From an uncultured Candidatus Saccharibacteria bacterium (GTDB taxonomy: Bacteria > Patescibacteriota > Minisyncoccia > Phycocordibacterales > UBA5272): a DNA stretch of 64,000 nucleotides. The stretch is taken from the NCBI GenBank assembly GCA_964512315.1, contig CAZEIK010000002.1, forward strand, positions 45,304 to 109,303, written 5' to 3'. The translations under genes and the position numbers were made by a program. Shown piece after piece: positions 214-26,879 of the stretch; position 1 is the stretch's first letter; each line of letters begins with the position of its first letter. Under the pieces are notes generated by a model that had not been told where the DNA came from, made no database searches, and was given only the letters and a program-made list of their open reading frames with translations.

Positions 214-2127
214 ATGCTAAACGATAAACAATTAGAAGCAAGTAAGACAATAACTGGACCGCTGTTAATCCTAGCAGGGGCGGGGGCGGGTAAGACAAAG
301 ACAATAACTGAAAGAGTGGTGGAAATAGTGCGAGCTGGCAATGCGGTGGAGAGAATATTATGTGTAACATTTACTAACAAGGCCGCAGCAGAGATGCGTG
401 AGCGTATATCAAAAAGATTAAAAGAGGAGGGCCTCCTGGATGAGTGGGGCGGGGCACCATTAATCAAGACATTTCACTCGCTCGGCCTGTGGCTGATGCG
501 TAGGGAGTCGGGATACCTAGGACTCAACAAAAACTTTACAATATTAGACAGCGATGATACGAGGGGTATAGTAAAAAGAATACTAGAAGACAGGGGGTTC
601 GACACTAAGATGTATGAGCCAGCTAAAATACGTAATGCTATATCCAGGGAGAAGGGGGACTTTGTGACGGTTAACGAGTATCGCTCTCGCGTATCGAGTT
701 ACACAATGGACGTGGTGGCTACTGTGTGGGGACTGTACGAAGAGGAGCTACGCAATCAGGGCGCTGTGGACTTTGACGACTTGATTGTTCGCTGTGTTGA
801 GATGTTAGAAAGCGATACATTTATAAGAGAAAAGTATCAGAATTATTTTACGCACATACACATTGATGAGTACCAAGACACCAACAACTCTCAATATAAA
901 TTCTCTAAACTCCTAGTTAATCCTAAGCAAAATAATATTTGTGTAGTGGGTGACACTGATCAGAATATATATAGCTGGCGCGGAGCGAACCTCAAAAACA
1001 TAATGAATTTTGAAAAGGACTTCCCTAATACAAAAGTCATATTATTAGAGGAAAATTATCGCTCAACAGGCAACATACTATCTCTTGCTAATAATGCAAT
1101 TAAGAAGAATACTGTTAGAAAAGAAAAGAATCTTTTTACTCGCTCAGGAGATGGGGAGAAGATTGAAATACTTCCAAGCTGGGACGAGGAGTCCGAAGCA
1201 GAGTGGGTAGCAAAAAAGTCAAAAGAACTAATCGCTTCTGGAGTTGACCCCAACAGCATCGCTGTATTATATAGAACCAACTTTCAATCCAGAATAATGG
1301 AGGAAATGATGCTTCGCAATGATGTACCTTATGCAGTACTCGGTACCAAGTTCTTCGAAAGAAAAGAGGTTAAGGATATATTGAGTTACTTAAAGGCAGC
1401 CCTTAATCCAAAAAGTCAGCCAGACCTAAAGCGTGTATTCGAAACACCCAAAAAAGGCGTTGGTAAGACGACCATAGCCAAGCTGTTTTCTAATGAGGAG
1501 TTACCAGCTGCTGCGAGGAAAAAGGTGGATGCTGTTTTTAACTTTTTAAAAGAAATCGCTGACATGCTACAGACTGAGCCTCTCTCACATGTTATGAATT
1601 ATATTCTGGTAGAGTCTGGTATAGAAAAAGAATTAAAAGATGAAGGTGAAGACGGGATGATAAGGCTCGCCAACATATCCGAGCTGATCACACTAGCTAG
1701 CAAATACGATGAGATGGCTTATGACGAAAACATTGAGAAATTCTTCGAGCTTGCCTCACTTTCTAGCGATCAAGATGATGACAAAAAAGAGGCTTCTGGT
1801 GTTAGGTTGATGACCATACACTCATCCAAAGGTCTTGAATTCGATTATGTTTTTATTGTAGGACTAGAAGAAGACCTTTTCCCGTCTAAAAACTTTTCTG
1901 GCAAACAAAAGTCAAAAGAGGAGTCTGAGGAGGAAAGGAGGCTGTTCTATGTGGCCGTGACAAGGGCGAGAAAGAAGCTTTATCTTACTTATGCAGAGAT
2001 GAGAACAATATTCGGCCAACGTAACATCGCTCCACCCAGCCAATTCCTCTCAGATGTTGATCCAAACGAGACCGAGTATCACGACGTGTATTACAAGGAA
2101 AATAATGGTAAAGTGTTCTATATATAA
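214..2127 (+). CDS. pcrA: ATP-dependent DNA helicase, UvrD/PcrA/Rep family
   Basis: N-terminal GPLLILAGAGAGKTKTI Walker A in the typical PcrA context (LNxxQxEA..GPLLIxAGAGSGKT). 637 aa, consistent with the family. Confidence 0.9.
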   Translation: MLNDKQLEASKTITGPLLILAGAGAGKTKTITERVVEIVRAGNAVERILCVTFTNKAAAEMRERISKRLKEEGLLDEWGGAPLIKTFHSLGLWLMRRESGYLGLNKNFTILDSDDTRGIVKRILEDRGFDTKMYEPAKIRNAISREKGDFVTVNEYRSRVSSYTMDVVATVWGLYEEELRNQGAVDFDDLIVRCVEMLESDTFIREKYQNYFTHIHIDEYQDTNNSQYKFSKLLVNPKQNNICVVGDTDQNIYSWRGANLKNIMNFEKDFPNTKVILLEENYRSTGNILSLANNAIKKNTVRKEKNLFTRSGDGEKIEILPSWDEESEAEWVAKKSKELIASGVDPNSIAVLYRTNFQSRIMEEMMLRNDVPYAVLGTKFFERKEVKDILSYLKAALNPKSQPDLKRVFETPKKGVGKTTIAKLFSNEELPAAARKKVDAVFNFLKEIADMLQTEPLSHVMNYILVESGIEKELKDEGEDGMIRLANISELITLASKYDEMAYDENIEKFFELASLSSDQDDDKKEASGVRLMTIHSSKGLEFDYVFIVGLEEDLFPSKNFSGKQKSKEESEEERRLFYVAVTRARKKLYLTYAEMRTIFGQRNIAPPSQFLSDVDPNETEYHDVYYKENNGKVFYI

Positions 2128-2915
2128 TGCTAGTCAAAGCAAAGAAGTCATTAGGGCAGAATTTTCTTAGGTCAAAGGCAGCACTTTTGGCTATTGTTGA
2201 GTGTTCAAATATCAGCACCAGCGACACTGTTATAGAAATAGGTCCTGGCGAAGGGGTGCTAACTGAAGAACTGCTAAAAACTGGAGCAAAAGTGGTTGCT
2301 ATAGAAAAAGATGACAGATTAATTGAAATTCTAAATCAAAAGTTTTTAGAATATACAAAACAAAGCAAATTCGAACTGTTACATGCTGATGTAACTGATT
2401 TTGACTTTGCTAAGTTAGACAAAAATTATAAAGTAATAGCCAATATACCTTACTACATAACAGGGTTAATAATGAGAAAGTTGATTGATGACGGTGGGGC
2501 ACAATCATTAACACTTCTGGTTCAGCGTGAAGTAGCCGAGAGGGGTTGCGCAAGAGATGGTAAGGGGTCGCTACTTTCTAATTCAATATTGTCATACGGC
2601 GTACCCAAATACGTTAAGACTGTGCCGCGTGGATCATTTGTACCGTCACCCAATGTAGACAGCGCTATTTTATATATTAAGCGCCACGACGCATCAGCCT
2701 TTAGAGACGCGCAGGAAAAAGAGTTATTCTTTGAATTAATACATGCAGGGTTCGCTCACAAACGCAAAACATTATTACACAATTTAAATATATACAATCA
2801 AGAAAAAGGATTGAGCGTAAAATGGGAACAAATAATAGACAGCAAGGTGCGAGCTGAGGATGTGCATTTTGAAGACTGGCTACGTATTGTGCGTGATACA
2901 ATTAAGTTGTGGTAG
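2127..2915 (+). CDS. rsmA: 16S rRNA (adenine1518/1519-N6)-dimethyltransferase
   Basis: SLGQNFL...IEIGPGEGVLTEEL SAM-binding motif typical of KsgA/RsmA. Start overlaps the pcrA stop (TAATG). Confidence 0.9.
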   Translation: MLVKAKKSLGQNFLRSKAALLAIVECSNISTSDTVIEIGPGEGVLTEELLKTGAKVVAIEKDDRLIEILNQKFLEYTKQSKFELLHADVTDFDFAKLDKNYKVIANIPYYITGLIMRKLIDDGGAQSLTLLVQREVAERGCARDGKGSLLSNSILSYGVPKYVKTVPRGSFVPSPNVDSAILYIKRHDASAFRDAQEKELFFELIHAGFAHKRKTLLHNLNIYNQEKGLSVKWEQIIDSKVRAEDVHFEDWLRIVRDTIKLW

Positions 2916-3781
2916 AGAAAACACCGAACAATGACTCTCTTTCTAGAGAAAAAGCTTTTTTGATTCTAGCTGGACTTTTGGCTGTGATTGCATTTCTGAT
3001 TTATGGGCTTTTCCCGGATCAAGCCAAAACACCCGAGATACCCTCTTCTAGTCTTAGCTCCAAAATACAAACATATGATCAGCTGATAAGCCTTGGCCAG
3101 GACTTGAGCGGTAATGGTCAACCAGCATGGAGGGAAATAGTCTTCGGCGACAAGACAAAAAGTGGTGACAACTCAACAACAAGCAACCTTACTACAATAC
3201 TAGCTCGTGACACTATGGCAATAGGAGTGCTATCTAACAAGAACACAGACGTAAATGCTGACTTATATATGTCGGCCCTGGTAGACAGCGCGTCTCAACA
3301 GATAACAGTAAAAGATGTTGGTCAGATCAACGTTTCTAATGACAATTCAAGAGCTGCGCTCAAGGAATACGGTAACAATGCAGCAGTTGTGTTCGGTATG
3401 TTTTTCGGTAATGAGCAAAAAGAGTTAAAAGATTTGCAGAACTATATAAATACCAATAATGCGTCTAACCTGAACAATATAAAATCTCTACAGAAGCAAA
3501 TACAATCTCTCTGTGCGTCATTTAAGACAGTCGCCGCACCTAAAAACATCGCAACTCTACACAGAACACTTCTAGAGCAATGCTTCTACTATAACGACAT
3601 ATTGACAGCCTTTACAAAAGTCGACTCCGACCCAAGCTCGTCTTTGGTTGCTGTGGGGCAGTATCAAGGCATGATAAACAATCAGACTGAACTACTTAGC
3701 AAGATGCGAGACTTTTTTGACTCTAACAATGTCGTGTTCGGCGTGTCTGATTACGGTAGGATTTTTAACAAAAATATATGA
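2909..3781 (+). CDS. membrane-anchored hypothetical protein, first gene of the T4SS-like cluster
   Basis: One N-terminal TM helix (FLILAGLLAVIAFLIYGLF) then a soluble domain. Translationally coupled to flanking genes. No recognisable motif. Confidence 0.45.
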   Translation: MVEKTPNNDSLSREKAFLILAGLLAVIAFLIYGLFPDQAKTPEIPSSSLSSKIQTYDQLISLGQDLSGNGQPAWREIVFGDKTKSGDNSTTSNLTTILARDTMAIGVLSNKNTDVNADLYMSALVDSASQQITVKDVGQINVSNDNSRAALKEYGNNAAVVFGMFFGNEQKELKDLQNYINTNNASNLNNIKSLQKQIQSLCASFKTVAAPKNIATLHRTLLEQCFYYNDILTAFTKVDSDPSSSLVAVGQYQGMINNQTELLSKMRDFFDSNNVVFGVSDYGRIFNKNI

Positions 3782-5433
3782 AAAAAATAATTGCTTCATT
3801 CTTAATAGCTTTTGGACTTTGGACAAACACTGCGTCAGCTTTTATAGTTTTTGACCCTACACAATTCAGTACACAAGTACTACAATATGGGCTAGAAATT
3901 GCTGGCAACATAACAGCTTACCAAAGCATGATAAAAGAGTACGCACTAGACCCGCTCGCTTATGCAATAGCGCAACGTGTTAAGAATCAAATTAAGCAAG
4001 AGATAGTTAAGTGGGCACAAGATGGTGGTAGTGGTAAGCCTCAGTTCCTCGAGAATCCAGAAAGATTCTTCACTAATCTAGCAACTCAGGAGCTAACACT
4101 AGTTAAGCGTGACCTGATGACTAATATTGTTGGTAATGACGCCGTGTTGAAGGCTTTGGTCTCAGGTAATGCCGAAGGGTATGTTAAAAAGTCTTTCCAA
4201 GAATTCATGGTACCAACAACCAACAAAGTGATACAAAATGACATCTGTTCTCCTGCGAAGCTGCAAAAGATGGCTTCGGAGAACGCTGCTGGTGCAGCAG
4301 AATTCGCAAGGCGCTATTGTGGAGCAACAACCAGCACCTCATCTCAGCAGCAGCAATACAAAGACCTTCAGAACTGCTTTGCCAAAGACTTCTCATGTGG
4401 TGGCTGGAACGCCTTTCTGTCTATTACCCAGGACCCTTATCGAAATACAGAGACCGGACGCCTGGCCGTTGCACAGTTACAACTTCAGCAAAATGTAAAT
4501 CAAAAAACAACCAACACCAATAATGAGCTTAATCGTGGAGGAGGATTCTTCAGTCAAAAAGTATGCAAGAAGGGCGCTTTGTTAGAAAAAGATGACCAGG
4601 GCGAGCCGCTACCCAAAGAAAGTCAACTCTGTACCGAGTACGAAACACTCACTCCTGGTGACCAGATAAGGAACCTAACTAATGAAGTATTAGGCGACCC
4701 TCTCAAGCAATTGCAACAGTCAGACGAGATTAGTGAGATTATTGTTAGCGCACTTATGGTGAAACTGCAATCCATAGGTCTACGTCATCTAAAAGATGGT
4801 TTTGATAATCTTATTAGAGGCGCAACCGATGGATCTGGTAGTCTGCGAGACAGCGTGACTGCAGCTGGCGCTCCGAAGGACCCAACAGTAGCCAGCAGCT
4901 CAGTAACACTAAGTAACGCCGACCATCGCAACTTAACAGCGAACATGCTTCAACTTATGAATAGTGTGCTCAAGGAACACTCAACCAACTTAACTGTTGT
5001 ACAAGAAGAATTAACCAAATATCAGAATCTTGCTGACAAAATAGTTCAGATTGAGACCTGTTATCAAGAGAAATCTTCTTGGCTTGCAATGCCGCCACTT
5101 GTAAAAACAACAGTAGACTCACAGAAGCAAATAATAGGCCAGAAAGTCTTGGCTCTTGCTGATGAGTTTTCTACATACAAGGAGAAAGCTGACGACCTTT
5201 CAGCAGCAATAGAGACAGTCACAAGGAGTCGTGACGCCGACGCTATAACCAATATATATAACGCCTTCAATGCGGAGCTTTCTGCTAATTCATATCTAAC
5301 TTCTGCTGTGGCAGACAAGAGAAGGGCGGACAATGAGGAGCTGTACAAACAACTAGACCAACTTTCTACAACTTTTGACTCAATGTTAACCGAGTGTCAA
5401 CAGGCTCAACCAAGTACAGCTGGAGGTAACTAA
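3778..5433 (+). CDS. secreted hypothetical protein (T4SS-associated)
   Basis: Signal peptide MKKIIASFLIAFGLWTNTASAF. 551 aa with a Gln-rich stretch and predicted coiled-coil C-terminal half. Start overlaps the previous stop. Confidence 0.5.
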   Translation: MKKIIASFLIAFGLWTNTASAFIVFDPTQFSTQVLQYGLEIAGNITAYQSMIKEYALDPLAYAIAQRVKNQIKQEIVKWAQDGGSGKPQFLENPERFFTNLATQELTLVKRDLMTNIVGNDAVLKALVSGNAEGYVKKSFQEFMVPTTNKVIQNDICSPAKLQKMASENAAGAAEFARRYCGATTSTSSQQQQYKDLQNCFAKDFSCGGWNAFLSITQDPYRNTETGRLAVAQLQLQQNVNQKTTNTNNELNRGGGFFSQKVCKKGALLEKDDQGEPLPKESQLCTEYETLTPGDQIRNLTNEVLGDPLKQLQQSDEISEIIVSALMVKLQSIGLRHLKDGFDNLIRGATDGSGSLRDSVTAAGAPKDPTVASSSVTLSNADHRNLTANMLQLMNSVLKEHSTNLTVVQEELTKYQNLADKIVQIETCYQEKSSWLAMPPLVKTTVDSQKQIIGQKVLALADEFSTYKEKADDLSAAIETVTRSRDADAITNIYNAFNAELSANSYLTSAVADKRRADNEELYKQLDQLSTTFDSMLTECQQAQPSTAGGN

Positions 5434-5471: not shown

Positions 5472-7832
5472 GTGAAAATCTGGCGCGCAATATTAATCTT
5501 AACCTGTTTTTCTATACTTTTTTTCGCGCCACAGATCAGTTATGGCCAAGCTGTGCAACCTTGTGACACAGCCGAAACAATAGGTACTACATATCCATGC
5601 AGAGACAGCCAAGGCAGAAGTTGGGGTAGTTTTGCTGAAAGGCAAAACGCTATGAACGCTGCCGGGGCAGCGGAAATGGCTAAAAAAAATGAATCTAAGC
5701 CAACAGGTCGAGTTCAAGTTTGTCCAGCTGCTGCATATGAAAAGTTTTCTCTCGCAAACCTAGCCTCTGTTGGGATTTTGCCAGCTCTTTGTGGTATTGT
5801 AGATTTCACTCTTTCTGGAATAGGGTGGGCCTTGGCTGGTTTAATGTATCTTTGTGCAACACTTTTTGACTATTCTTTCGATAATTTTGTGTTACACATA
5901 GCAACAATGTTCCAGGATGAAGACGGAGTTAACAAGGCTTATATATATGGCGCTTGGACAGCTATACGAGATTTAGCCAACATTGCAGCATTCTTTGCTG
6001 CTGTGTACGCCGGATTCTTACGAATTATAGGACAAAATCAAGAAGACTTTCGTAAGGCTGTTGCCAAGCTTCTACTCTTCGCATTACTTACTAACTTTTC
6101 TTTTGCTTTGTCAAAGTTCGCAATAGATGTTTCTAATGTTATCTCGCTGCAAATATATGGCGCTGCTTCTGGTTATAAGTTTTCTGGGAACGTTAGCACT
6201 AGTTCACAAGGAATGCTTTCAAGCGACTACGGCATTAGTACTGCCTATATGAAGCAGATGGGAATATCTGCTTTTGTGCAGGACACGTCACAAGTAAATC
6301 CGAACTCTGCTTTTAAGAACCTAGACTCTCTGACTGTTGTTTTTGTTTCTTATATTTTCTTTATTTTTGCGGGTTGGCAATTTTTAAGTATGGCGATTTT
6401 TATTTTAACGAGAAGCTTTTTATTAATTGCTAGTGTTATTTTTTCTCCGCTGATGTTTATTGGAGGGCTTGTGCCAGCTTTAGACAAAGCTCATGACAAG
6501 TGGCGAGAGACATTTTTTGGTAATTTGGTTGTTGCTCCTATATTGGCCATATTTACTTGGTTAGGTCTTCAGATTTTAAAGGGTGCCAATGAGACAACTT
6601 TAGGAATTATTGGCGACGGCAGCATACAAGATATGTTAAAGCAGATTGCCATGCTTGCTCTTACAGGAATATCTTTATATGTCGGCAAAAAATTTGCTGA
6701 GCAAGCCTCGGGGGCGGTTGGGCAATTTGCAGTAAAGGTCTTAGGTGGAGCGGTGGGTGGGGCGGCGATGGCTGTTGGTACTGCGGGTACCGGATTCGTA
6801 GCTCGTGCCGGCATGGCTCGTGCGGCAGCGATGGCTGGTAATGTTGGCAAGAAGTGGGCAACACAAGAGGGCGCAGGTAGAGCCAAAAAATTCGCAGGAG
6901 GGCTACTTCTTAAGGGTGGGGAGAGGATGGAGAAGACTCAAATATTCGGCCGCTCTGCTTATGATGTTAGAAAAGGGATTGAGGATAAGGTCGCAGATAA
7001 GCGCAATACAGTATTGAGGGAGAATCGTATGGCAGCCAGGAACCTAGGGTGGACAGACAGGTTAGAGCAAGCCAAGAGCGCTGATGAGGTGGCATATATG
7101 GAGCAACAAATCAAACGTGGCACTACATATTCGAGGGATACACATGACGCAGAGATAGCAGCGCTCAAGAACAAGCCAATACAAAGAGCTTCTGCTTCTG
7201 AGCTGCGTGTACTAGATAAAGACTTAGACAAGGCCCGTGATTTAGATGAGAAGATAAAGATAAAAGATTCCACTGTTGCTACACAGATACAAAATGGTCA
7301 GAAAGCGTTAGATGACGAATATGGAGATATAATAAAAACAAGAACAGAATATCTTGAAAATCAAAAGCGTGGCAACGCAACAGCAGAAGAGAGAAAGAAA
7401 ACTGAAGACTATATAGCCACCACAAGAAAAACTTTAGCCGATAAGAAGGCTGAATTAGAAAAGCAATTAACGGAACAAAAGAACTCTGACACTTATTATC
7501 AAGACCTACAAAATCAACTAAAAGTTTTACAAGATGATTACTCTAAAACAACCACAGCCTATAAATTAGGCTCAGCTGTTGGTGTTATGAATGAGACGCA
7601 GAGGCAGGCTGGTGAGCAGGATTTGGCTGCAATTAAGGGAGCAATATCAACTTTGGGGAGCATAAAACCTTTCACTACCGAGTTCGACCAGCCCAATTTA
7701 GCCCCTGGTCAAGCTACAACTTTCCAAAATATACAAAAAAGCTCTGGCGGTGAACCATTTAACACGCTGACACCAAAACAAGCAGACTCTATTGCTTCAA
7801 AATTAAGAGGCTTTAAGAAAGCGAAACAATAA
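5472..7832 (+). CDS. VirB6/TrbL-like polytopic membrane protein with a long C-terminal coiled-coil extension
   Basis: GTG start. Signal-like N-terminus, then at least 6 hydrophobic helices and a Gly/Ala-rich segment, followed by a roughly 300-aa charged coiled-coil tail. Sits upstream of the VirB3/VirB4 homologues. Confidence 0.55.
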   Translation: MKIWRAILILTCFSILFFAPQISYGQAVQPCDTAETIGTTYPCRDSQGRSWGSFAERQNAMNAAGAAEMAKKNESKPTGRVQVCPAAAYEKFSLANLASVGILPALCGIVDFTLSGIGWALAGLMYLCATLFDYSFDNFVLHIATMFQDEDGVNKAYIYGAWTAIRDLANIAAFFAAVYAGFLRIIGQNQEDFRKAVAKLLLFALLTNFSFALSKFAIDVSNVISLQIYGAASGYKFSGNVSTSSQGMLSSDYGISTAYMKQMGISAFVQDTSQVNPNSAFKNLDSLTVVFVSYIFFIFAGWQFLSMAIFILTRSFLLIASVIFSPLMFIGGLVPALDKAHDKWRETFFGNLVVAPILAIFTWLGLQILKGANETTLGIIGDGSIQDMLKQIAMLALTGISLYVGKKFAEQASGAVGQFAVKVLGGAVGGAAMAVGTAGTGFVARAGMARAAAMAGNVGKKWATQEGAGRAKKFAGGLLLKGGERMEKTQIFGRSAYDVRKGIEDKVADKRNTVLRENRMAARNLGWTDRLEQAKSADEVAYMEQQIKRGTTYSRDTHDAEIAALKNKPIQRASASELRVLDKDLDKARDLDEKIKIKDSTVATQIQNGQKALDDEYGDIIKTRTEYLENQKRGNATAEERKKTEDYIATTRKTLADKKAELEKQLTEQKNSDTYYQDLQNQLKVLQDDYSKTTTAYKLGSAVGVMNETQRQAGEQDLAAIKGAISTLGSIKPFTTEFDQPNLAPGQATTFQNIQKSSGGEPFNTLTPKQADSIASKLRGFKKAKQ

Positions 7833-7833
7833 C

Positions 7834-8433
7834 ATGAATCCAGAACTTCGTAATGCAATTGATATAGAGATAAGAAAGTCTTCAAAAGAGATGCAGGACT
7901 TTTTATTCGGGGAATATTTCAAAGACACAGTGAAATTAATTGAAAGAGTTAATAAGTTTACAGAAGACCAAGCTGTATCATTAGAATTAGAGGTTACAAT
8001 GTGCCTACTCGGAATTAGTGATTATCCATCTCTAGAAGAGGCTTTTAAAGGTGAACTAGGGCAGGGTGGGCAAGTTGCAAATGAAGCGACTGTAAGGCAG
8101 GCTGTGAAGGATGTAGAAAATTATATTCTATCCAAGGCTCCAAAAGTTGCCCCAGCTACTCAGGTTGCCACTATAGAAGTTAAACCAGAAATAGAAAGTA
8201 GCACAACAAACACCGCTGAGCCTTCTTCTAAAAATCTGCACGAAATACTTTATTCTCAATTAGAGGTAAACAAGGCCTCAGAAATGGAAACAAATACAGT
8301 ACCTAACCCAGAAGCAAAACCAGAAACTTTTGAAGATATAAAAGATAAAGTCGAAGAAAAAGCCCTACAAAAACCACTAGATTTCTACAGAGAAAAGGTT
8401 GATGAAGAGGATAAGAAAATGAAGACTTTATAA
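7834..8433 (+). CDS. acidic hypothetical protein
   Basis: 199-aa ORF. Acidic, no TM segment. Tightly packed inside the T4SS cluster. Confidence 0.4.
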   Translation: MNPELRNAIDIEIRKSSKEMQDFLFGEYFKDTVKLIERVNKFTEDQAVSLELEVTMCLLGISDYPSLEEAFKGELGQGGQVANEATVRQAVKDVENYILSKAPKVAPATQVATIEVKPEIESSTTNTAEPSSKNLHEILYSQLEVNKASEMETNTVPNPEAKPETFEDIKDKVEEKALQKPLDFYREKVDEEDKKMKTL

Positions 8434-8452: not shown

Positions 8453-8827
8453 GTGCAATTCAGAGTACCACAATTCATAGATATAGAAGACAAGATAATT
8501 GGGCCATTAACCTGGAGGCAGTTTGCTTATTGCCTTGGTGCTGTTGGTGTTACTTATCTAGCTATGAGGTTTATCCCGAGCAACATAATAGCTCTTATTG
8601 TTATATCTCCTGTAGCTGGCTTATTCCTAGCTCTAGCTTTTGTAAAAATAAACAATCAACCCTTTGTTGAAGTTATGGAGCATGCAATTAACTACTTTTC
8701 TCGCAGCAATATATATACTTGGCAAAGAAGAAATAATAACATTCAGGTTATAACCCCAGATCCGAGCACTCTCAAACAAAAGTCTTTGAGCTTAGACACC
8801 AAAAACGTGGAAACATCTTCTGAATAA
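8453..8827 (+). CDS. PrgI/VirB3-like small membrane protein
   Basis: 124 aa with two adjacent TM helices (FAYCLGAVGVTYLAMRFIP / IIALIVISPVAGLFLALAFV). Lies two genes upstream of the VirB4-like ATPase, as in Gram-positive conjugation-type T4SS. Confidence 0.55.
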   Translation: MQFRVPQFIDIEDKIIGPLTWRQFAYCLGAVGVTYLAMRFIPSNIIALIVISPVAGLFLALAFVKINNQPFVEVMEHAINYFSRSNIYTWQRRNNNIQVITPDPSTLKQKSLSLDTKNVETSSE

Positions 8828-9480: not shown

Positions 9481-11289
9481 ATGGGAATACTTGATTTTAT
9501 TTTAGGCAAAGACACAACGGTAGCAAACACAGCAGCCACTACACCTTCTGCGGAACAAAATACCGGGCCGAGTCTGCAAGATATAGTGGCGCCATCTGCT
9601 CTTAAAATAGAGTCTAAGGATTTTATTCTTGGTGACGTTAAAGGTAGAACATATTTTGTAATGTCTTACCCTAGATATCTAACAGATAATTGGTTGTCGC
9701 CGTTAGTTAATCTAGACAAAGTGTTCGACGTTGGTATACATATATCACCAGTAGATACCGCTGAGGTGATGAAGAAGTTCCAACGTAAAGTGGCTGAGGT
9801 TCAAAGCCAGATAATGATAAGAGAGGAGAAGGGTATGGTTCGTGACCCAATGCTAGAGACTGCTTATGAGGACCTAGAAAGTCTGCGTGACGACCTAATG
9901 CAAGCACAAGAGAAAATGTTCGAGGTGGGGCTATATATAACAATATACGCAAGAGACGACAAAGATCTAGACCGTGTAGAAAAAGAAATAAAATCAATAC
10001 TAGAAAGTAAGTTAATAACCGTTCGTCCTGCATACTTCCAGCAAGGCGAGGGAATACTTACAACAATTCCATTAGGTAAAGATGATTTGAAACAGGTTAC
10101 CAAGCTTAATACTTCACCATTATCTTCTATATTTCCATTTGTTTCTTTTGATCTAACTAGCGATAGAGGTATATTGTACGGCATCAACAGACATAACGGC
10201 TCACTGTTACTGTTCGACAGATTCTCAATGGAGAACTACAACTCTATAATATTTGCCAAGTCTGGTGCCGGAAAGTCTTTTGCGACAAAGCTAGAAATAT
10301 TGCGCACATTAATGTTCGACACCCAGGTTATTATTATAGACCCTGAGCGTGAGTACGAGACATTGACTGATGCAGTTGGTGGCAGATACTTTAACATATC
10401 ACTAACCAGTGATAATCACATTAATCCTTTTGACCTGCCGATCCCAGCAGAAGATGAGAGTATGAGCGAGGTTCTGCGCAGCAACATTGTAACGCTGGTT
10501 GGGTTGTTCCGTGTTATGTTTGGAGGACTTACCCCCGAAGAAGACGCAATCATAGACCGCGCCATAACTGAGACGTACGCCCTCAAAGACATCACACCTG
10601 ATGCGGACTTCACCAAGCTAGACCCACCACTTCTTTCTGACTTTGAAATGGTTTTGGGCGGTCTCGATGGCAGTGAGTCGTTAATAGAAAGACTTCAAAA
10701 ATACACCAAAGGCTCTTGGGCTGGATTCCTTAATAACCCAACAAATGTAAATATAGACCAGAAATGTGTCTCTTTCTCGATACGCGACATGGAAGACGAA
10801 CTCAAGCCGGTGGCAATGTTTCTTGTTACTCATTACATTTGGAACTCTGTAAGAAAAGAGTTACGTAAGAGGCTTCTAGTTGTGGACGAGGCGTGGATAA
10901 TGATGAAGTCTGAAGATACAGCAAGCTTCTTGTATGGTCTTGCAAAGCGTGGTCGTAAATATTACTTGGGGTTAGCAACAATAACACAAGACGTGAACGA
11001 CTTCCTTAAGAGTGAGTATGGAGTGCCGATCATCACCAACTCATCTCTTCAGCTTCTTTTGAAGCAGTCTCCAACTTCTATAGATTTGATACAGAAGACT
11101 TTTAACCTTACAGACGAAGAGAAATTCTTACTCCTTGAGTCTAATGTGGGCGAGGGTATATTCTTTGCTGGACTCAAGCATGTGGCTGTAAAGATTATCG
11201 CCAGCCACACCGAAGAGCAAATAGTAACTAGTGACCCTTCTGAAATACTTCGTGTCAAGGAGTTAAAGCAAGGCTTAACCAACTTATAA
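9481..11289 (+). CDS. VirB4/TraE/PrgJ-like T4SS ATPase
   Basis: Walker A IIFAKSGAGKSFATK and Walker B LLVVDEAWIMM, with a following GLATITQD motif. 602 aa. Confidence 0.85.
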   Translation: MGILDFILGKDTTVANTAATTPSAEQNTGPSLQDIVAPSALKIESKDFILGDVKGRTYFVMSYPRYLTDNWLSPLVNLDKVFDVGIHISPVDTAEVMKKFQRKVAEVQSQIMIREEKGMVRDPMLETAYEDLESLRDDLMQAQEKMFEVGLYITIYARDDKDLDRVEKEIKSILESKLITVRPAYFQQGEGILTTIPLGKDDLKQVTKLNTSPLSSIFPFVSFDLTSDRGILYGINRHNGSLLLFDRFSMENYNSIIFAKSGAGKSFATKLEILRTLMFDTQVIIIDPEREYETLTDAVGGRYFNISLTSDNHINPFDLPIPAEDESMSEVLRSNIVTLVGLFRVMFGGLTPEEDAIIDRAITETYALKDITPDADFTKLDPPLLSDFEMVLGGLDGSESLIERLQKYTKGSWAGFLNNPTNVNIDQKCVSFSIRDMEDELKPVAMFLVTHYIWNSVRKELRKRLLVVDEAWIMMKSEDTASFLYGLAKRGRKYYLGLATITQDVNDFLKSEYGVPIITNSSLQLLLKQSPTSIDLIQKTFNLTDEEKFLLLESNVGEGIFFAGLKHVAVKIIASHTEEQIVTSDPSEILRVKELKQGLTNL

Positions 11290-11290
11290 A

Positions 11291-12262
11291 ATGAAACCTT
11301 TAATATTAATCTTTAGTTTAGTTCTTAGTCTGCAAGCAGTTATGGCCCAGAACCTTCTACCTGACCCTATTACCATAAGTACCAACCCAGAAGCGCCAGC
11401 ACCAGGGCAGAGTGTAACAGTCTCAGCACAAAGCCTAACAGCAGACCTGAACAAGTCCGACATATCATGGAGCGTGAATGGAAGATTTGCTTCTTCTGGT
11501 TTTGGTTTAAAAAGTTTAAATCTAAATCTGCCTTTCGGTAACCAGGCAATATTAATAGAGGTTACAGTCAAGTCGACAACAGGCGAAACATTTTACGCAA
11601 AGAAAACAATTAGCCCAAAGAGATTAATTTTAATTACAGAGGCGGTGGATAGTTATGTTCCCTATTGGTACGGAGGTAAGGCTGAAGTTGCAAATGCTGG
11701 TAGATTTAGAGTTTATGCTTATGCTGAGATATATTCAGGTAGCAAAAGACTTCAACCTTCTGAGCTGCTTTACAAATGGTCAGTAAGGGACGAGCCATTG
11801 GGTGACTCTTCTGGTGTGGGGCGTGACACATTAACTTACAAATTATTAGATGAGTACGGGGACGACGTGCCAGTCTCAGTAACAGTTTCTCCTGTTAGCA
11901 GTGATGAAGAGGTAACGGAAACAACCAACATAAAGCCTAAAAATCCTGAGCTTCTAGCTTACTTGGGGAATGAGTATGGTGATGTTTCAAATTTAAATAC
12001 AATTAAAAATAACCAGACTATTAAAAATAAAACATTTTCTGTTGTTTTGGAGCCTTTCTTTTTTTCAACAGACTCATATAAACAAAAAAACTTAGAATAC
12101 TCTTGGTATGTTAATAACAATCCAGACACCGGTAGCTCTAATTATGTAAAGCTCTTCCGCCTAGCAGAAAATGCTACTGGTACAGCAATAATTGATGTTT
12201 CAGTTAAGCATTTAACTAGACTATTCCAAGAAGCTAAAAATAGAATTAGTATAAATTTCTAA
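11291..12262 (+). CDS. secreted hypothetical protein (T4SS-associated)
   Basis: Signal peptide MKPLILIFSLVLSLQAVMAQ. 323 aa, beta-rich composition. Confidence 0.5.
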   Translation: MKPLILIFSLVLSLQAVMAQNLLPDPITISTNPEAPAPGQSVTVSAQSLTADLNKSDISWSVNGRFASSGFGLKSLNLNLPFGNQAILIEVTVKSTTGETFYAKKTISPKRLILITEAVDSYVPYWYGGKAEVANAGRFRVYAYAEIYSGSKRLQPSELLYKWSVRDEPLGDSSGVGRDTLTYKLLDEYGDDVPVSVTVSPVSSDEEVTETTNIKPKNPELLAYLGNEYGDVSNLNTIKNNQTIKNKTFSVVLEPFFFSTDSYKQKNLEYSWYVNNNPDTGSSNYVKLFRLAENATGTAIIDVSVKHLTRLFQEAKNRISINF

Positions 12263-12290: not shown

Positions 12291-13142
12291 ATGAATGGAC
12301 AGAATCCTGTTGAATACGATCTTCTTGAACCCCTAACCGGCCTTACTGATGAGGAGGGGTTAACTTCTGTGCCTGTTTCTCCAGAAGGGATATCTGACTA
12401 CTTTAATCAGACTTATAACTTTCTATTAATACTTATTGCTATTACGGCTGTTTTTTATCTTATATATGGCGGCATGGTATACCTAACAACCGACATAGCC
12501 AACAAACAAAAACAAGGTAAAGAGATAATCATTCGTGTCATAACTGGCTTAATTTTTGTTTTTACTGTGTGGATAATACTTAACTCTATTAACCCCGCGA
12601 TACTTAATAACAAGCTAACGTTTGCCATTCTTGATTCTACTACAAACAACCCTGGTCCAAGTAATCCTCCCAACAATCCACCTAACAACCCTCCACCCAA
12701 CACAACAGGTGAGCAGTGTACCACAATACCAGAGTCTGACTTAGTTGTTGTGCAACCTTCCAGAAAACTAAAAACTGCTGCTGCCGACAAGTTTAACCAA
12801 ATGTACATGGCGGCACAAAAAGATGGCATCAACCTTAAACTAACATCTGCATATAGAAGTCCTGCTGACCAGTTACGTATCTGGAACGAGAATGGTTGCA
12901 AACTAGTAAACAGTAAAGCTGTTTGTTTTGGTGGCAAAAGCGTTGCTGTTCCTTGTCAGCTTGGCGGTAACGGGTCTAACCACTCTACTGGTTATGCGGT
13001 GGATATTAATGTGGGTTGTATTAATGGTCAGTCTAACTGTAACACTAAGACCTATCAGTGGCTAAAGTCTAATGGTAGTAAGTATAATTTTAACAATAAC
13101 CTGCCTAGCGATCCTGTGCACTGGTCGCCTTCTGGAAGATAA
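12291..13142 (+). CDS. membrane-tethered peptidase M15 (VanY/LAS-type D-Ala-D-Ala carboxypeptidase-like) cell-wall hydrolase
   Basis: Two N-terminal hydrophobic helices, then a Pro/Asn linker (PSNPPNNPPNNPPPN). C-terminal domain carries SAYRSPADQ, HSTGYAVDI (HxxGxAxD) and a distal DPVHW histidine, which are the LAS/M15 zinc-peptidase signatures. Confidence 0.65.
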   Translation: MNGQNPVEYDLLEPLTGLTDEEGLTSVPVSPEGISDYFNQTYNFLLILIAITAVFYLIYGGMVYLTTDIANKQKQGKEIIIRVITGLIFVFTVWIILNSINPAILNNKLTFAILDSTTNNPGPSNPPNNPPNNPPPNTTGEQCTTIPESDLVVVQPSRKLKTAAADKFNQMYMAAQKDGINLKLTSAYRSPADQLRIWNENGCKLVNSKAVCFGGKSVAVPCQLGGNGSNHSTGYAVDINVGCINGQSNCNTKTYQWLKSNGSKYNFNNNLPSDPVHWSPSGR

Positions 13143-13143: not shown

Positions 13144-14208
13144 ATGCAAAATGACAACTTAAAAAAGAAAATATTAATTAGTGGTGGAGTGTTTATTGTT
13201 TTTATAATAATTTTTTCTTTATATTTAATATTTAAGGGCGGTGATACCGTGCAAACAACACAAAATAATGACAATAAAATTAACTTCCCAAGCTTATCTT
13301 TTGGTAACAAATTATTGTTAGATAATTCTGATTCTGAGGAGTCAAACAACTTAGAGACCTCAAATGAACTTAAAGATATTTATCTGGTGTGGGCAGGGCA
13401 GACAATAGGAGCTGCGTCTCTTGATGATGGTTCTGTGGCTTTTGTAGACAAAGCTTCTGGTGAGTTAAGAAAGTCTTCTGGACCTAACTACGAAGACACA
13501 AGCTTAATAACAACATTAAGACCGAATTGTTTCTCAGCTAAAATTTCCAACCCAGGATCTGTGGCGCTAATCCTTTGTGAAGATGGACTATATCTTTGGT
13601 CTAACTCTAGATTAAGCATTCTTAATCAGAACGCCTTTGATTATGAATTTATTAAAGGGTCTAATGATTTTGTTTTCTTTGTGAGAAGCTCATATGGAAC
13701 AGAAATATATCTTTCTAAACAAAACAAAATAACTAAGCTTTACACTTTACCGCTATTCGAAATAACAACGTTGGGGGCAGATGTTGATTATATTTACATT
13801 TCTGAAAAGCCTGCAGCAAGTCAAAATCTATTTGTTTACTCTTTTAAGAATAAGGATTTATATTTCATTAGGGACCTAAATTCTCAAGGTTTTGGTTTGT
13901 ATCAGAAGGGTTACGTTAAGGAGAAGTGTGCCAACTTTAACGAAAGCAGTAATTTGTGTTTCTTTAACTCACCAGAAAGTTTTAACTCTACAGCTTGGAG
14001 AAAGGGGGTGTTCTCGTCTAAAGACTCTGTATATTTCTACTCACTTGTAGATCAGAAATATACACTTAACACCAACTTATCTAAAGTTATAGACGCTGTA
14101 TCTGTTAACTATAATTCTAATGGTGGAATTGTTGACGTGATAGATAAGAACACTTTAAATCTTTTTGTTATAAAATCTGACGAATTGTTACAGGAGCACG
14201 AGCAATAA
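13144..14208 (+). CDS. membrane-anchored hypothetical protein (last gene of the T4SS-like cluster)
   Basis: ORF track starts at 13072 and overlaps the previous gene. The internal ATG at 13144 directly follows the upstream stop and is followed by a TM helix (ILISGGVFIVFIIIFSLYLIF). 355 aa from that start. Confidence 0.45.
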   Translation: MQNDNLKKKILISGGVFIVFIIIFSLYLIFKGGDTVQTTQNNDNKINFPSLSFGNKLLLDNSDSEESNNLETSNELKDIYLVWAGQTIGAASLDDGSVAFVDKASGELRKSSGPNYEDTSLITTLRPNCFSAKISNPGSVALILCEDGLYLWSNSRLSILNQNAFDYEFIKGSNDFVFFVRSSYGTEIYLSKQNKITKLYTLPLFEITTLGADVDYIYISEKPAASQNLFVYSFKNKDLYFIRDLNSQGFGLYQKGYVKEKCANFNESSNLCFFNSPESFNSTAWRKGVFSSKDSVYFYSLVDQKYTLNTNLSKVIDAVSVNYNSNGGIVDVIDKNTLNLFVIKSDELLQEHEQ

Positions 14209-18050: not shown

Positions 18051-18271
18051 TGTTTGAAAAATATCTTAATCTAATAAAATCTCACACAGACAATAAGAAT
18101 AAAATAAAACTCTTTCTAGATGAAAAAGGGTTAAGTAAAATTGATTTTAATATAGATGGAAATGAGGTGTTTTTTAATATACCATCAGCTTTTAAGTTAA
18201 GAATACATCAAAAAAGGTTAGAAATTATCAACTTTTTAAAAACGCTTAATCTAAAATCTAAAAACCTATAG
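18050..18271 (+). CDS. small hypothetical protein (resembles DUF721-type proteins often found next to dnaN)
   Basis: 73-aa ORF overlapping the dnaN stop. Basic C-terminus. Tentative resemblance only. Confidence 0.3.
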   Translation: MFEKYLNLIKSHTDNKNKIKLFLDEKGLSKIDFNIDGNEVFFNIPSAFKLRIHQKRLEIINFLKTLNLKSKNL

Positions 18272-20414
18272 TAGTGGTTGCCTCTGTTGATGTGCTAAAG
18301 CCACCAGAATAGAAAGGGCAAGAGTTATTTTGCGCCCAAGCCTGAATTGGTGTATTCCATAAGTTATACTGAGGGTCGTTATAATTAGGAGATCCACCAC
18401 CAACACCAATATCTCCTAATATTGTATGAGCTGGGTTACCTTCCCCACACCAAATACCGCGTAATATAGGTAAAGTGTTTTCATTTGTAGGAGTTGGTGC
18501 GTCAAAATACGAAATAGGGGTGTTGTTTAAAGCAACACTCATAAACTTTTTCCAAATAGGAGCAACAACCATACCAGCAACCTTTTTATCTATTGGAGTA
18601 TTATCGTTATTTCCAGCCCACATTCCAACAGCAATATCTGGAGTGTAACCAATAACCCAAACATCCTTATAGTCGTTAGTTGTACCAGTTTTGGCAGCAA
18701 CAGGCCTGTCGGGGAAATAAAGCGCGCTGTTAGCCCCAAAAGCCGGTATTCTGGCGTTGTTATCAGTTAAAACATTACTTAGTGTGTCTGTGTATTCTTT
18801 TGGCACGACATCGATAGAATTCTGTGTGTATTTCTCCAAAACATTACCATTTAAATCTTTTACCTCTAGAACAAGAGCTGGTTGGTTGTACACGCCACTG
18901 TTAGCAAAAGTCGCATAAACATTAGTTAGTTCTAAAAGAGACACCTCTCCACCACCCAACACAAGAGATAAACCAAACCTAGAACTGTCAGTAAGGCTTG
19001 TAATTCCTAAGGTTTTTGCGAAGTTTAGAGCGTTTTGAACCCCGACTAAGTATAAAGTTTTTACCGCGGGGACATTGAGTGATTGTTGCAACGCCGACCT
19101 TATTGATATTGGTCCACGATATTTACCATCATAATTCACCGGCATATAACACTGCCTTTTATCCCCACCGTTCAAAGGATTGCCGTACGCATCACAAAGG
19201 GTACTAAACTGTGTCGGTAGGTCGAATAGTGTGGTGTCAGGAGTTAACCCTTTCATAAACGCTAACAGGTACACAATAGGCTTGAATGCTGAACCTGGCT
19301 GACGTAAGGCAGTCGCTATATTAAATTGCCCATCTATTTCTTTATCAAAATAATCACGAGACCCAACAAGAGACAATACTTGCCCAGTTTTTGAGTCTAT
19401 TGCAACCAAGGCAGCATTTCGAGCTTTATATTTCTGCTCATTTTCTAAAGCACCCTCTTTTACTATTTGTTCAGCGTTCTTTTGAAGATTCCAATCTATT
19501 GTGGTAATTACTTTTAGCCCACCATTTTCAACTACCTCTTCACCATACTTACTCTCAAGATAGTCTTTGACCATAAAAACAAAATGCAAAGCCTTGGCGT
19601 TATTGGTTTCTTGGGGCAAGAAGGCGACATTCTCGTTTTTGGCTTCAGAGTATTGAGTGTCGTCTATCATTTTAAGCTCAAACATTCTAGAAAGCACAAG
19701 GTTTTTTCTCTCGTCTAGGGCGGATTTATTTTTACCGTAAGGAGAATAGAATGACGGCGCCTGTGGCATTGCAGCAAGATAGGCTGCCTCAGCAAGAGTG
19801 ACATCTTTGGCCGGCTTACCAAAATAAGACTGAGAGGCCTCTTCTACCCCATAAATAGACCCCCCATAAGGAGATTCGTTCAAATACATAGTCAAAATGG
19901 TATCTTTGTCCAGTTGTGCGTCCAACTTAACAGCCAATATCCACTCTTTTACTTTTCTTATAATTGTTTTTTGCCTATCCAACAAAGCGTTTTTTACAAC
20001 TTGTTGTGTTATTGTTGACCCACCCTGTGAGTATCCGCCTGATGCAAGGTTGGCAAGCACTGCTCTCATTATTGATTGAGGTCGTATCCCGTAATGCTCG
20101 TAAAAATGAGAATCCTCAATAGCAACAGCGGCATTTTTAATATTTAGACTTATTTGATCAGACGGAACAACGGTACGTTTGATATTCTCGTGTATATTGT
20201 AGAGCACAACTTTACCAGTTCTGTCATAAATCTTGGTAGAATTGGCTATTTTACGATTCTCAAAGTCACTAAAATCAGGAAGTTTTATTGTGGCTATCCA
20301 TACAACAAAAAGCGCAGAGGTTATAAGGGTCAACCCAACCAAGGCGTAAAAAGACTCTTTCATCATATGTGAGACAAAACGAGACCTGCGATGATTGTGT
20401 TTCGGATGGTTCAT
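18258..20414 (-). CDS. class A penicillin-binding protein (bifunctional glycosyltransferase/transpeptidase, PBP1A-like)
   Basis: N-terminal TM. GT51 motif AIEDSHFYEHYGIRP. Transpeptidase SxxK-type region (GSAFKP) and KTGT motif. Confidence 0.9.
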   Translation of the reverse strand: MNHPKHNHRRSRFVSHMMKESFYALVGLTLITSALFVVWIATIKLPDFSDFENRKIANSTKIYDRTGKVVLYNIHENIKRTVVPSDQISLNIKNAAVAIEDSHFYEHYGIRPQSIMRAVLANLASGGYSQGGSTITQQVVKNALLDRQKTIIRKVKEWILAVKLDAQLDKDTILTMYLNESPYGGSIYGVEEASQSYFGKPAKDVTLAEAAYLAAMPQAPSFYSPYGKNKSALDERKNLVLSRMFELKMIDDTQYSEAKNENVAFLPQETNNAKALHFVFMVKDYLESKYGEEVVENGGLKVITTIDWNLQKNAEQIVKEGALENEQKYKARNAALVAIDSKTGQVLSLVGSRDYFDKEIDGQFNIATALRQPGSAFKPIVYLLAFMKGLTPDTTLFDLPTQFSTLCDAYGNPLNGGDKRQCYMPVNYDGKYRGPISIRSALQQSLNVPAVKTLYLVGVQNALNFAKTLGITSLTDSSRFGLSLVLGGGEVSLLELTNVYATFANSGVYNQPALVLEVKDLNGNVLEKYTQNSIDVVPKEYTDTLSNVLTDNNARIPAFGANSALYFPDRPVAAKTGTTNDYKDVWVIGYTPDIAVGMWAGNNDNTPIDKKVAGMVVAPIWKKFMSVALNNTPISYFDAPTPTNENTLPILRGIWCGEGNPAHTILGDIGVGGGSPNYNDPQYNLWNTPIQAWAQNNSCPFYSGGFSTSTEATTTIGF

Positions 20415-25173: not shown

Positions 25174-25221
25174 GCTTATATTATAACCAATAAAATCTAT
25201 ATAAATATAATCTTTTACACC

Positions 25222-25249
25222 TTGACAAAAGTATTATTTAGTGTATACT
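25222..25249 (+). promoter_or_regulatory. near-consensus sigma70-type promoter (TTGACA-N16-TATACT) upstream of the lipoprotein gene
   Basis: TTGACA at 25222-25227 and TATACT at 25244-25249 with a 16-nt spacer. RBS AGGAGA precedes the ATG at 25316. Confidence 0.4.
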
Positions 25250-25315
25250 AGTGTTAGTAATCTGATCATTCATTTTGCGGTGAGATAATATCAACAACCC
25301 GCCAAGGAGACGCGA

Positions 25316-25624
25316 ATGCGTTCAATTTTCATTATCGCAGGACTCGCTTCGCTCGCCTTATCAGGCTGTGTTACGATTGTTGCGCGAGAACAACCGGCGC
25401 AACAGGCGGTCTATTACCGCCAAGCGCCAGCACCTGTTGTAAATGGCCTTCCTCAAGGTTGTCAGCGCACCATTTACGGTACGCACTGCAATCAGGCGGA
25501 TGGTTACATCCTCCAGGCGCCGCAAGTGCCAGGCCGCACGGCTCAGCCGGGTGCCGGTCAGCCGACTTGCCCCTACGGTGGTACGCTACGCACAGTCAAC
25601 GGACAACTCTTGTGTGTCCGCTGA
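25316..25624 (+). CDS. small Cys-containing lipoprotein (high-GC island gene 1)
   Basis: Signal peptide with lipobox LALSGC, AGGAGA RBS, roughly 62% GC codon usage with strongly GC-biased third positions. Confidence 0.55.
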   Translation: MRSIFIIAGLASLALSGCVTIVAREQPAQQAVYYRQAPAPVVNGLPQGCQRTIYGTHCNQADGYILQAPQVPGRTAQPGAGQPTCPYGGTLRTVNGQLLCVR

Positions 25625-25706
25625 CACCAACTTTCACTTTTAGGGTACCGGGACTGTGATCACTCCCAAGCGCTCGCTTATCCTTCCCCGGACGAGCTGC
25701 TGATAT

Positions 25707-25741
25707 TCCCTGAACGGACCCCTGTGGTCCGTTTTTCTTTT
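25707..25741 (+). terminator. rho-independent terminator
   Basis: Stem ACGGACC-CCTGT-GGTCCGT followed by TTTTTCTTTTT. Confidence 0.5.
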
Positions 25742-25776
25742 TATATAAAGTAATAAAAAATATTAAATGTATAGTC

Positions 25777-26862: not shown

Positions 26863-26879
26863 GAATTTCCCTACCGCAA

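Follow-up and report, generated by a model that had tools for sequence, protein, structure and literature searches.

A candidate VirB1 equivalent built on a pilin: a VanY-type peptidase domain fused to a VirB2-like hairpin in a Saccharibacteria type IV secretion locus

The wall hydrolases of Gram-positive type IV secretion systems (T4SSs) use SLT, CHAP, muramidase (MUR), or LytM domains (PMC12857230). In Patescibacteria the T4SS lies adjacent to oriC and has neither a relaxase nor a coupling protein (PMC12102498), and in S. epibionticum the saccharibacterial system and its pilins are essential for epibiotic growth (PMC10633639). SEML1_0007 of S. epibionticum ML1 (1113 residues), encoded directly downstream of virB4 (SEML1_0008), was essential in transposon sequencing (Tn-seq) and carries at its C terminus a "Hedgehog/DD-peptidase" domain that is closest in structure to an M15B protein; SEML1_0006, a lysozyme/cysteine-protease protein also encoded downstream of virB4, was tabulated as essential (PMC10633639). 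It has been proposed that these essential peptidase and lysozyme homologues near virB4 may replace VirB1, and a survey of Patescibacteria, most of which have VirB2-like genes and no recognizable VirB1, inferred that pilus biogenesis there needs neither VirB1 nor a wall hydrolase (PMC12102498). An M15B-like peptidase beside virB4 is already on record for S. epibionticum, and the T4SS type, its VirB2-like pilins, and its oriC position have been published (PMC12102498, PMC10633639, PMC12857230). Here we describe a gene in a 64,000-nucleotide stretch of contig CAZEIK010000002.1 from an uncultured Candidatus Saccharibacteria bacterium (hereafter the window), which lies one gene downstream of virB4 and joins a VirB2-like pilin module to a VanY-type peptidase domain.

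Domain architecture of the fusion protein

Both domains of the open reading frame (ORF) at 12291-13142 cleared the curated Pfam cutoffs: T4SS_pilin (PF18895) at residues 34 to 98, with 38.8 bits against a cutoff of 26.6 (E = 9.9e-10), and peptidase VanY (PF02557) at residues 158 to 271, with 60.4 bits against a cutoff of 25 (E = 2.1e-16). A first-pass annotation of this DNA, made from the letters alone, had proposed a LAS/M15 peptidase behind an N-terminal pair of hydrophobic helices that resembled VirB2; the second half of that proposal now goes beyond resemblance, since the helices pass a curated family threshold. The motifs it quoted are present in the ORF (SAYRSPADQ at residues 186 to 194, HSTGYAVDI at 231 to 239, and DPVHW at 274 to 278), as is its linker, PSNPPNNPPNNPPPN, found at residues 123 to 137 (12657-12701) within the longer linker region. 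Full-length homologues from Saccharibacteria, Paceibacteria, and Kaiserbacteria form 47 clusters, most of them annotated with both Pfam domains, and the ratio of nonsynonymous to synonymous divergence (dN/dS) over the whole gene is 0.10 relative to a sister strain (P0002/L020). On these two grounds we take the ORF to be real and not a chance reading frame. An antisense ORF at 12455-12937 (160 residues) was rejected as a shadow ORF.

An AlphaFold model built on 45 homologues had a mean predicted local distance difference test (pLDDT) score of 81. Helices at residues 31 to 66 and 70 to 100 (pLDDT 85 to 93) form a helical hairpin, residues 109 to 132 fall below 50 and are predicted to be disordered, and the C-terminal domain reaches about 90 or higher; a β-hairpin at residues 7 to 29 of the N-terminal tail is weakly predicted. 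A Foldseek search with the C-terminal domain gave VanYB (5hnm) as the top match (E = 2e-6, probability 1.0), followed by the LD-carboxypeptidases BaLdcB/LdcB (4mph, 4jid, and 4ox3), the endolysins Ply500 (2vo9) and LysB4, and VanX; 1r44 was also among the matches. When the sequence was searched against the PDB, the solved relatives recovered were only proteins that Foldseek had also matched. The VanY domain further matches the peptidase domain of phage tape-measure proteins (phrog_16823, E = 1e-10, in PHROGs).

Alignments of 22 and of 45 homologues show no variation at R189, S229, H231, G234, A236, D238, and H277, which include all three predicted zinc ligands. R189 is presumably the substrate-binding arginine of VanY-type enzymes, judging from what is known of the VanY/LdcB family. 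The acid three positions ahead of the distal histidine takes the form ExxH in VanY and DxxH in M15C endolysins; at the corresponding position, 274, the homologues have either Asp or Glu, with Glu in some of them and in VanYB. Six conserved cysteines (143, 203, 212, 222, 243, and 250) all lie in the C-terminal enzyme domain. The peptidase assignment therefore stands on a Pfam family, an intact SxHxxGxAxD motif with its distal histidine, and a predicted LAS fold; the findings that would have spoken otherwise, a nonpeptidase fold or loss of the HxxGxAxD or distal His ligands, did not appear. Sequence and model together identify the C-terminal domain as a zinc peptidase of the VanY/M15B type and LAS fold, its metal site and catalytic set complete.

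Hydropathy places two transmembrane (TM) helices at about residues 41 to 63 (TM1) and 81 to 101 (TM2), and a charge count gives the loop between them (residues 64 to 80), taken with R82, a net positive charge; a short, positive loop between two hydrophobic helices is a VirB2-like trait. Because the tail is acidic, the loop is positive (the positive-inside rule), and all cysteines fall in the enzyme domain, charges and hydropathy predict an N-out/C-out hairpin like that of mature VirB2, with the loop in the cytoplasm and the tail and the enzyme outside.

The hairpin region (12390-12593) also has a weak, subthreshold match to NCBIfam NF045849, the Mbov_0395 family of pilin-like conjugal transfer proteins, and ORFs neighboring the fusion gene weakly match Mbov_0396 and Mbov_0397 of mycoplasma integrative and conjugative elements (ICEs). 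MPF-FATA systems of Mollicutes are usually said to lack VirB2-like proteins; the matches hint that such proteins occur there as well.

Gene context, exchanged heads, and the wider family

VirB4 is the signature protein of T4SSs, and the operon that holds the fusion gene is of the chromosomal, oriC-adjacent type described for Patescibacteria. Related loci were sought with a 10-sequence alignment; the closest are from metagenome-assembled genomes of uncultured Candidatus Saccharibacteria, with 74% and 62% protein identity. In the window, as in all seven related Saccharibacteria loci with upstream DNA to compare, a cargo-bearing pilin stands one gene downstream of virB4; in one locus it stands two genes downstream, and one locus (L016) has a tandem pair, pilin-SLT and then pilin-VanY. 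No free pilin lies within 10 kb in the window or in the syntenic Saccharibacteria loci, where the only pilins near virB4 are cargo bearing. A six-frame search of the 64 kb with two home-built hidden Markov models (HMMs), one from 21 domains and one from 244, found no other pilin-like ORF. The first-pass annotation had called the peptidase the only wall-active domain here, and Pfam, NCBIfam, and PHROGs searches of every operon ORF indeed gave no second one; nor did another appear among the best 25 Pfam families for the rest of the window. A prophage holin-endolysin or signal-arrest-release (SAR) endolysin was excluded, the gene being part of a chromosomal, syntenic T4SS operon beside yidC and dnaA, without phage genes.

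Paceibacteria and Kaiserbacteria carry the fusion in a different conserved locus, which follows clpB, adjoins miaA, and has parB close by; in L001, L017, and L018 the fusion unit lies between clpB and miaA, near parB. In these lineages (L001:8405-9433, L008, L010, L011, and L018) a second pilin-domain protein of 330 to 410 residues, with a C-terminal domain that has no family assignment, usually precedes the fusion. In the gene-called loci L001/L002 and L018, one or two small unassigned ORFs separate the pilin-VanY gene from the second pilin gene.

The two halves of the protein differ in how far they are conserved. Compared with the window protein, Saccharibacteria homologues are 88 to 91% identical in the hairpin (residues 41 to 104) and 22 to 73% identical in the enzyme domain, and some near-identical hairpins carry an enzyme domain that is only 26 to 34% identical. 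In Paceibacteria fusions the hairpin is 14 to 22% and the enzyme domain 50 to 59% identical to that of the window protein. On these identities the hairpin of the Saccharibacteria proteins is conserved far beyond the needs of a generic membrane anchor. The same chromosomal slot in Saccharibacteria loci holds three classes of cargo: the DPVHW-type VanY of the window, an E(Y/R)WHW-type VanY (P0011, P0013, and P0014), and a domain without a Pfam match (P0016 and P0194).

Against the sister strain, synonymous divergence (dS) is 0.12 in the hairpin, 0.17 in the linker, 0.12 in yidC, and 0.04 in dnaN; it is 1.1 in the N-terminal tail and 1.89 in the VanY domain. The dN/dS of the VanY domain is 0.07, which indicates purifying selection. 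Diversifying selection on the enzyme was excluded by this ratio and by the jump of synonymous divergence itself, from about 0.12 to 1.89; the two together argue that the enzyme head was replaced by recombination and its function kept by selection. Recombination shows outside the enzyme as well. Patches at 11263-11562, 11863-12012, and 13363-13662 are only 79 to 85% identical in nucleotides to the sister locus, against 96 to 100% for virB4, yidC, and dnaN, and the extracellular proteins flanking the fusion are recombination mosaics.

The third cargo class is a LAS-like domain (L015:891-1745, P0016; L021:10001-10933, P0194; and P0196-P0211) that belongs to no Pfam family and has the motifs DRSLASQQL, LFGQCH, SxHxxGKAVDF, and HWHYSVGGR. 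Small secreted homologues in Actinobacteria (Pseudonocardiaceae and Cryptosporangium) are 50 to 55% identical to it, and other proteins join the domain to B_lectin, ricin-type lectin, or phage lysozyme domains. This distribution hints at an exchange of the domain between the phyla of epibiont and host.

As a homologue query, the pilin module alone (residues 1 to 115) returned one fragment, and it was replaced by a HMMER profile scan of 1.84 billion cluster representatives, which matched 10,411 proteins at E ≤ 1e-3, of which 697 reached E ≤ 1e-10. Architectures were taken from the best 150 of the 10,411 matches, and Pfam was run on 148 of those 150. At least 100 residues extend beyond the pilin domain in 117 of the 150; only 11 are 160 residues or shorter, and 24 have two or more pilin domains. 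PF18895 was matched in 143 of the 148, with PF04956 (TrbC/VirB2) in addition in 20. The cargo comprises 19 VanY, 9 SLT, and 3 NlpC/P60 domains and one each of M23, M15_3, M15_4, M15 (VanX type), 3D, YkuD, and phage lysozyme. About one-quarter of these closest 148 representatives thus bear a recognizable peptidoglycan enzyme, and every cargo with an assignable function is peptidoglycan active, the exceptions among soluble cargo domains being an Fn3-like phosphatase domain, matched twice, and Big_2, matched once. VanY lies C-terminal to the pilin domain in 19 of 19, after a spacer of 25 to 70 residues, and direct reading found the catalytic motifs intact in one NlpC/P60, one SLT, and one M23 fusion. 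The domain combination, which the first-pass annotation called unusual, is so when set against classical T4SSs with their SLT, CHAP, muramidase, and LytM domains, but within Patescibacteria it is common and conserved; we would sooner count the window protein among a broad class of predicted pilin-tethered wall enzymes in that phylum.

Among the same matches, P0153 (1000 residues), P0093 (786 residues), P0055 (618 residues), and 21 others contain 2 to 7 tandem T4SS_pilin domains. We know of no description of such concatenated polypeptides.

Proposed role and competing explanations

The reading that we prefer, with a probability of about 0.5, is that the fusion is a machine-docked, membrane-retained enzyme that acts on the epibiont's own wall as the VirB1 equivalent of its T4SS. 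TM2 would serve as a signal-anchor that exports the linker and the enzyme, leaving the peptidase flexibly tethered outside the membrane. The pilin module would couple it to the T4SS by the VirB2 docking and extraction route at the VirB3/VirB4/VirB6 complex, so that stem peptides would be cleaved right where the apparatus crosses the wall; most copies would remain associated with the membrane or the base, cutting the wall of the epibiont itself. What argues for this role and for the coupling to the T4SS is where the gene lies and which cargo the family carries. The protein showed no sequence homology to VirB1 and would act as a VirB1 in function without being a VirB1 homologue. The label of T4SS cell-wall hydrolase, applied in the first-pass annotation, fits the operon context in Saccharibacteria; as an attribution of function it goes further than that context, and in Paceibacteria the fusion has no virB4 within 10 kb.

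Several points weigh against this reading. As carboxypeptidases, enzymes of the VanY and LdcB type shorten stem peptides and leave cross-links closed, and how such activity alone would open a passage is a puzzle. An N-terminal leader of the VirB2/TrbC type is absent from the protein by hydropathy and alignment; leader-bearing relatives (P0111 and Paceibacteria-type fusions) have a predicted cleavage site directly ahead of their YxLLEPL motif, and the leader has apparently been lost in the lineage of the window. The Paceibacteria and Kaiserbacteria loci have no virB4 within 10 kb of the fusion, and linkage to virB4, although strict in the Saccharibacteria lineage, is not universal. Our view covers 64 kb of the genome, and free pilins may lie elsewhere. 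Finally, filament formation by T4SS_pilin proteins is unproven, cultivated Saccharibacteria included (PMC12857230).

The same scaffold could instead form an enzyme-displaying pilus, the main rival explanation, although we regard it as rather unlikely. The fusion would polymerize, alone or with free pilins, and, where epibiont and actinobacterial host touch, digest the host wall and so clear a path for T4SS-mediated exchange. Since the termini of VirB2-type subunits face outward on the filament, the peptidase would decorate the shaft or the tip. Such a pilus would suit a window whose only VirB2-like ORF is the fusion, with syntenic loci that have only cargo-bearing pilins near virB4, and it would suit the swapping of cargo on a constant scaffold, where three LAS classes and a tandem pilin-SLT gene occupy one slot. 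The contrast between a dS of 1.89 in the VanY domain and 0.12 in the hairpin and yidC resembles the replacement seen in host-range determinants; the neighboring secreted proteins and the N-terminal tail are also highly divergent, however, so the signal is not specific to the enzyme. One cargo class is close to secreted proteins of Actinobacteria, the host phylum of cultivated Saccharibacteria, and the VanY domain is akin to the peptidase domain (phrog_16823) inside phage tape-measure proteins, which breach a target wall. The essential part that the saccharibacterial T4SS and pilins play in growth on the host (PMC10633639) and the precedent of domain-displaying modular pilins among type IV pili (PMC8179133) point the same way. 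Yet no filament has been demonstrated for any T4SS_pilin protein, a 16-kDa domain on each subunit may impede packing, and the characterized Gram-positive T4SS hydrolases are all membrane anchored and act on the donor wall (PMC12857230). The stronger version, with the fusion as the only VirB2-type subunit, a filament built of or capped by enzyme pilins that digest the host wall, and heads swapped to match, strikes us as unlikely. If it were true, the heads (the three LAS classes, SLT, NlpC/P60, M23, and lysozyme) would be recombined to suit host wall chemistry, and exchangeable cargo acting on the host wall could determine host range.

Two further explanations place the protein outside secretion or outside catalysis. 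It may be a housekeeping DD- or LD-carboxypeptidase that trims stems during wall maturation, with an anchor derived from a pilin and an operon position that is historical. Its closest solved relatives are VanY/LdcB carboxypeptidases, PBP1a (18258-20414) and a Mur ligase show that the organism makes peptidoglycan, the Paceibacteria fusion sits among housekeeping genes away from virB4, and the enzyme domain is under strong purifying selection. A hairpin conserved at about 90% beneath a swapped enzyme is nevertheless the opposite of what a generic anchor would lead one to expect; the scaffold bears lytic enzymes (SLT, NlpC/P60, M23, and lysozyme) in other genomes, the virB4 synteny is strict across Saccharibacteria loci, and a housekeeping enzyme would hardly be expected to yield its slot to another LAS class. 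We consider this explanation improbable. More improbable still is a noncatalytic adhesin whose LAS domain binds stems, its own or the host's, without cleaving them: inactive VirB1 homologues are possibly adhesins in some Gram-positive systems (PMC12857230), but the 45 homologues keep the metal ligands, the substrate arginine, and an acid at the catalytic position, which would not be expected had catalysis been lost.

If the fusion is indeed a VirB1 equivalent, it suggests an alternative to the notion that no VirB1 is needed in these bacteria, namely that the hydrolase is built into the pilin gene in many lineages. To our knowledge, no T4SS but the patescibacterial one has been found essential for the growth of its bearer, and the fusion is a candidate for how an ultrasmall epibiont passes a secretion machine through its own wall or that of its host. 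The family amounts to a large class of bimodular VirB2-type proteins that has gone unannotated. Most of its remaining long members have unassigned C-terminal domains, and new domains that act on the wall or are directed at the host are candidates to be found among them.

Neighboring genes and comparison with described systems

The features of the fusion gene and the genes around it are collected in Table 1.

Table 1. Coordinates of the fusion gene, its parts, and its neighbors in the window
Feature	Position	Strand	Basis or remark
Whole gene, T4SS_pilin + VanY/M15B	12291..13142	+	ATG start; 283 aa; stop codon included
Acidic N-terminal tail, aa 1-40	12291..12410	+	Charge +0/-8; without signal peptide
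YDLLEPL motif within N-terminal tail	12315-12335	+	Starts at residue 9
T4SS_pilin (VirB2-like) domain, aa 34-98	12390..12584	+	PF18895, hydropathy, AlphaFold helices
Pro/Asn/Thr-rich flexible linker, aa 105-140	12603..12710	+	Low pLDDT, sequence reading
Predicted LAS-fold zinc peptidase domain, VanY/M15B type, aa 141-283	12711..13139	+	PF02557, pLDDT, Foldseek
R189 of SAYRS motif	12855..12857	+	Invariant in 45 sequences
SxHxxGxAxD motif	12981..13004	+	Predicted zinc ligands H231 (12981-12983) and D238 (13002-13004)
DPVH	13110..13121	+	Putative catalytic acid D274; predicted third zinc ligand H277
uvrD	214-2127	+	
ksgA	2127-2915	+	
Three ORFs without assignment (290, 551, and 199 aa)	2909-5433, 7834-8433	+	
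786-aa membrane protein, possible VirB6-like channel subunit	5472..7832	+	Weak, subthreshold NCBIfam
PrgI/VirB3-like gene	8453-8827	+	PF12666, E = 2e-11
TrsD/TraC-like gene, 206 aa	8856-9476	+	NCBIfam TrsD; VirB4 N-terminal region
VirB4-like ATPase	9481..11289	+	P-loop_TraG, E = 1e-25; AAA_10; one gene upstream of the fusion gene
323-aa secreted protein between virB4 and the fusion gene	11291..12262	+	Signal-peptide-like N terminus
354-aa N-terminally anchored protein, directly downstream	13144..14208	+	ORF, sequence

The possible channel subunit has subthreshold NCBIfam matches to the CD3337/EF1877 and Mbov_0396 ICE membrane proteins and no Pfam match. Among orthologues of the PrgI/VirB3-like and TrsD/TraC-like genes, PF26593 is matched; the TrsD/TraC-like product also matches the N-terminal region of mycoplasma-type VirB4, and it appears from these matches that the N-terminal domain of VirB4 is encoded here as a protein of its own. 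The secreted protein between virB4 and the fusion has orthologues in four related loci (L003, L004, L019, and L020), with conserved synteny, and no family match in Pfam, NCBIfam, or PHROGs; the downstream anchored protein likewise matched no family in these three databases. A mechanical ORF start for the latter, at 13072, overlaps the fusion gene by 71 nucleotides; its true start is likely the ATG at 13144, one base past the stop codon of the fusion gene, because orthologue gene calls and an N-terminal TM segment favor it. Beyond 14208 come yidC (minus strand), dnaA, dnaN, and the PBP1a gene, and the rest of the window is housekeeping by Pfam (best 25 families).

Farther along, 25200-27900 has a GC content of 45 to 52% against a background of about 40% and may be a horizontally acquired island; ribosomal RNA was excluded as the cause of the GC-rich stretch at 26 to 28 kb. 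It holds small secreted or lipoprotein-like ORFs (25316-25624 and a paralogous pair, 26974-27444 and 27460-27879, that shares a C.GC.DPN N-terminal motif) and a 318-residue Ala/Arg-rich ORF (25906-26862) without a Pfam match. The ORF at 28671-31232 encodes an 853-residue repetitive protein, rich in Cys, Thr, Asn, and Tyr, that starts with a signal-like segment and ends in a TM helix, features that give it the look of a large surface protein.

Among known proteins, the solved VanY/LdcB enzymes (M15B; 5hnm, 5zhf, 4mph, and 4ox3) share with the C-terminal domain the predicted LAS fold, the SxHxxGxAxD motif with its distal histidine, and the SxYRS arginine. The window protein is only 20 to 25% identical to them, has Asp instead of Glu ahead of the distal histidine, and differs further in its Cys-rich insert, with the six conserved cysteines, and in its fusion to a pilin. 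Phage tape-measure proteins and tail lysins (phrog_16823 and phrog_2649) likewise place a VanY-like peptidase on a structural, translocated protein that has to do with wall crossing, although carrier and context are different and no phage genes lie near the fusion.

The pilin half resembles VirB2/TrbC and the PF18895 pilins of Patescibacteria in its two-TM hairpin, its predicted mature-VirB2 topology, and its proximity to virB4, and differs from them by 180 added residues of linker and enzyme and by the lack of a leader peptide; the survey that counted such genes gave no mention that we could find of a hydrolase domain on VirB2 homologues (PMC12102498). The nearest design analogy, and an analogy only, is with modular type IV pilins such as PilB of Streptococcus sanguinis, in which a functional module is also grafted C-terminally onto a pilin, a design that would put the module on display if the pilin is assembled (PMC8179133). 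Those pilins belong to an unrelated filament superfamily, carry an adhesin and not an enzyme, and have a class III signal peptide, whereas direct reading of the N terminus MNGQNPVEYDLLEPL found no such signal (G/FTLxE-type motif).

Among secretion systems, the T4SS of S. epibionticum ML1 is of the same phylum-level type, lies adjacent to oriC, and has an M15B-like protein near virB4. Unlike the operon in the window, it has a separate lysozyme/cysteine-protease protein and six free pilins (SEML1_0014-0019), and SEML1_0007, compared by its description, is far longer than the window protein and has no reported pilin module. No description of a pilin-hydrolase fusion was found in searchable papers and supplements, a search that left subscription journals mostly outside; an automated JGI annotation of one homologue (P0019) does name both halves.

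The closest functional counterparts are the Gram-positive VirB1-like proteins PrgK (pCF10), TraG (pIP501), and Orf14 (Tn916), which are encoded near virB4, are membrane anchored, and have extracellular catalysis (PMC12857230); their presumed role, local wall remodeling for the machine, is the one that we propose here, and the domain repertoire of Gram-positive VirB1 homologues largely overlaps the cargo of the pilin family (SLT, NlpC/P60-CHAP, M23, and lysozyme). The window protein differs in its anchor, a two-helix VirB2-type module where theirs is a single N-terminal TM helix, and in its catalytic domain: Pfam, NCBIfam, and PHROGs found no SLT, CHAP, muramidase, or LytM domain in it, only VanY/M15B, which is outside the four described classes. 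Against these systems the novel element is a T4SS wall hydrolase, as we read it, whose catalytic family is unusual and whose carrier is a pilin.

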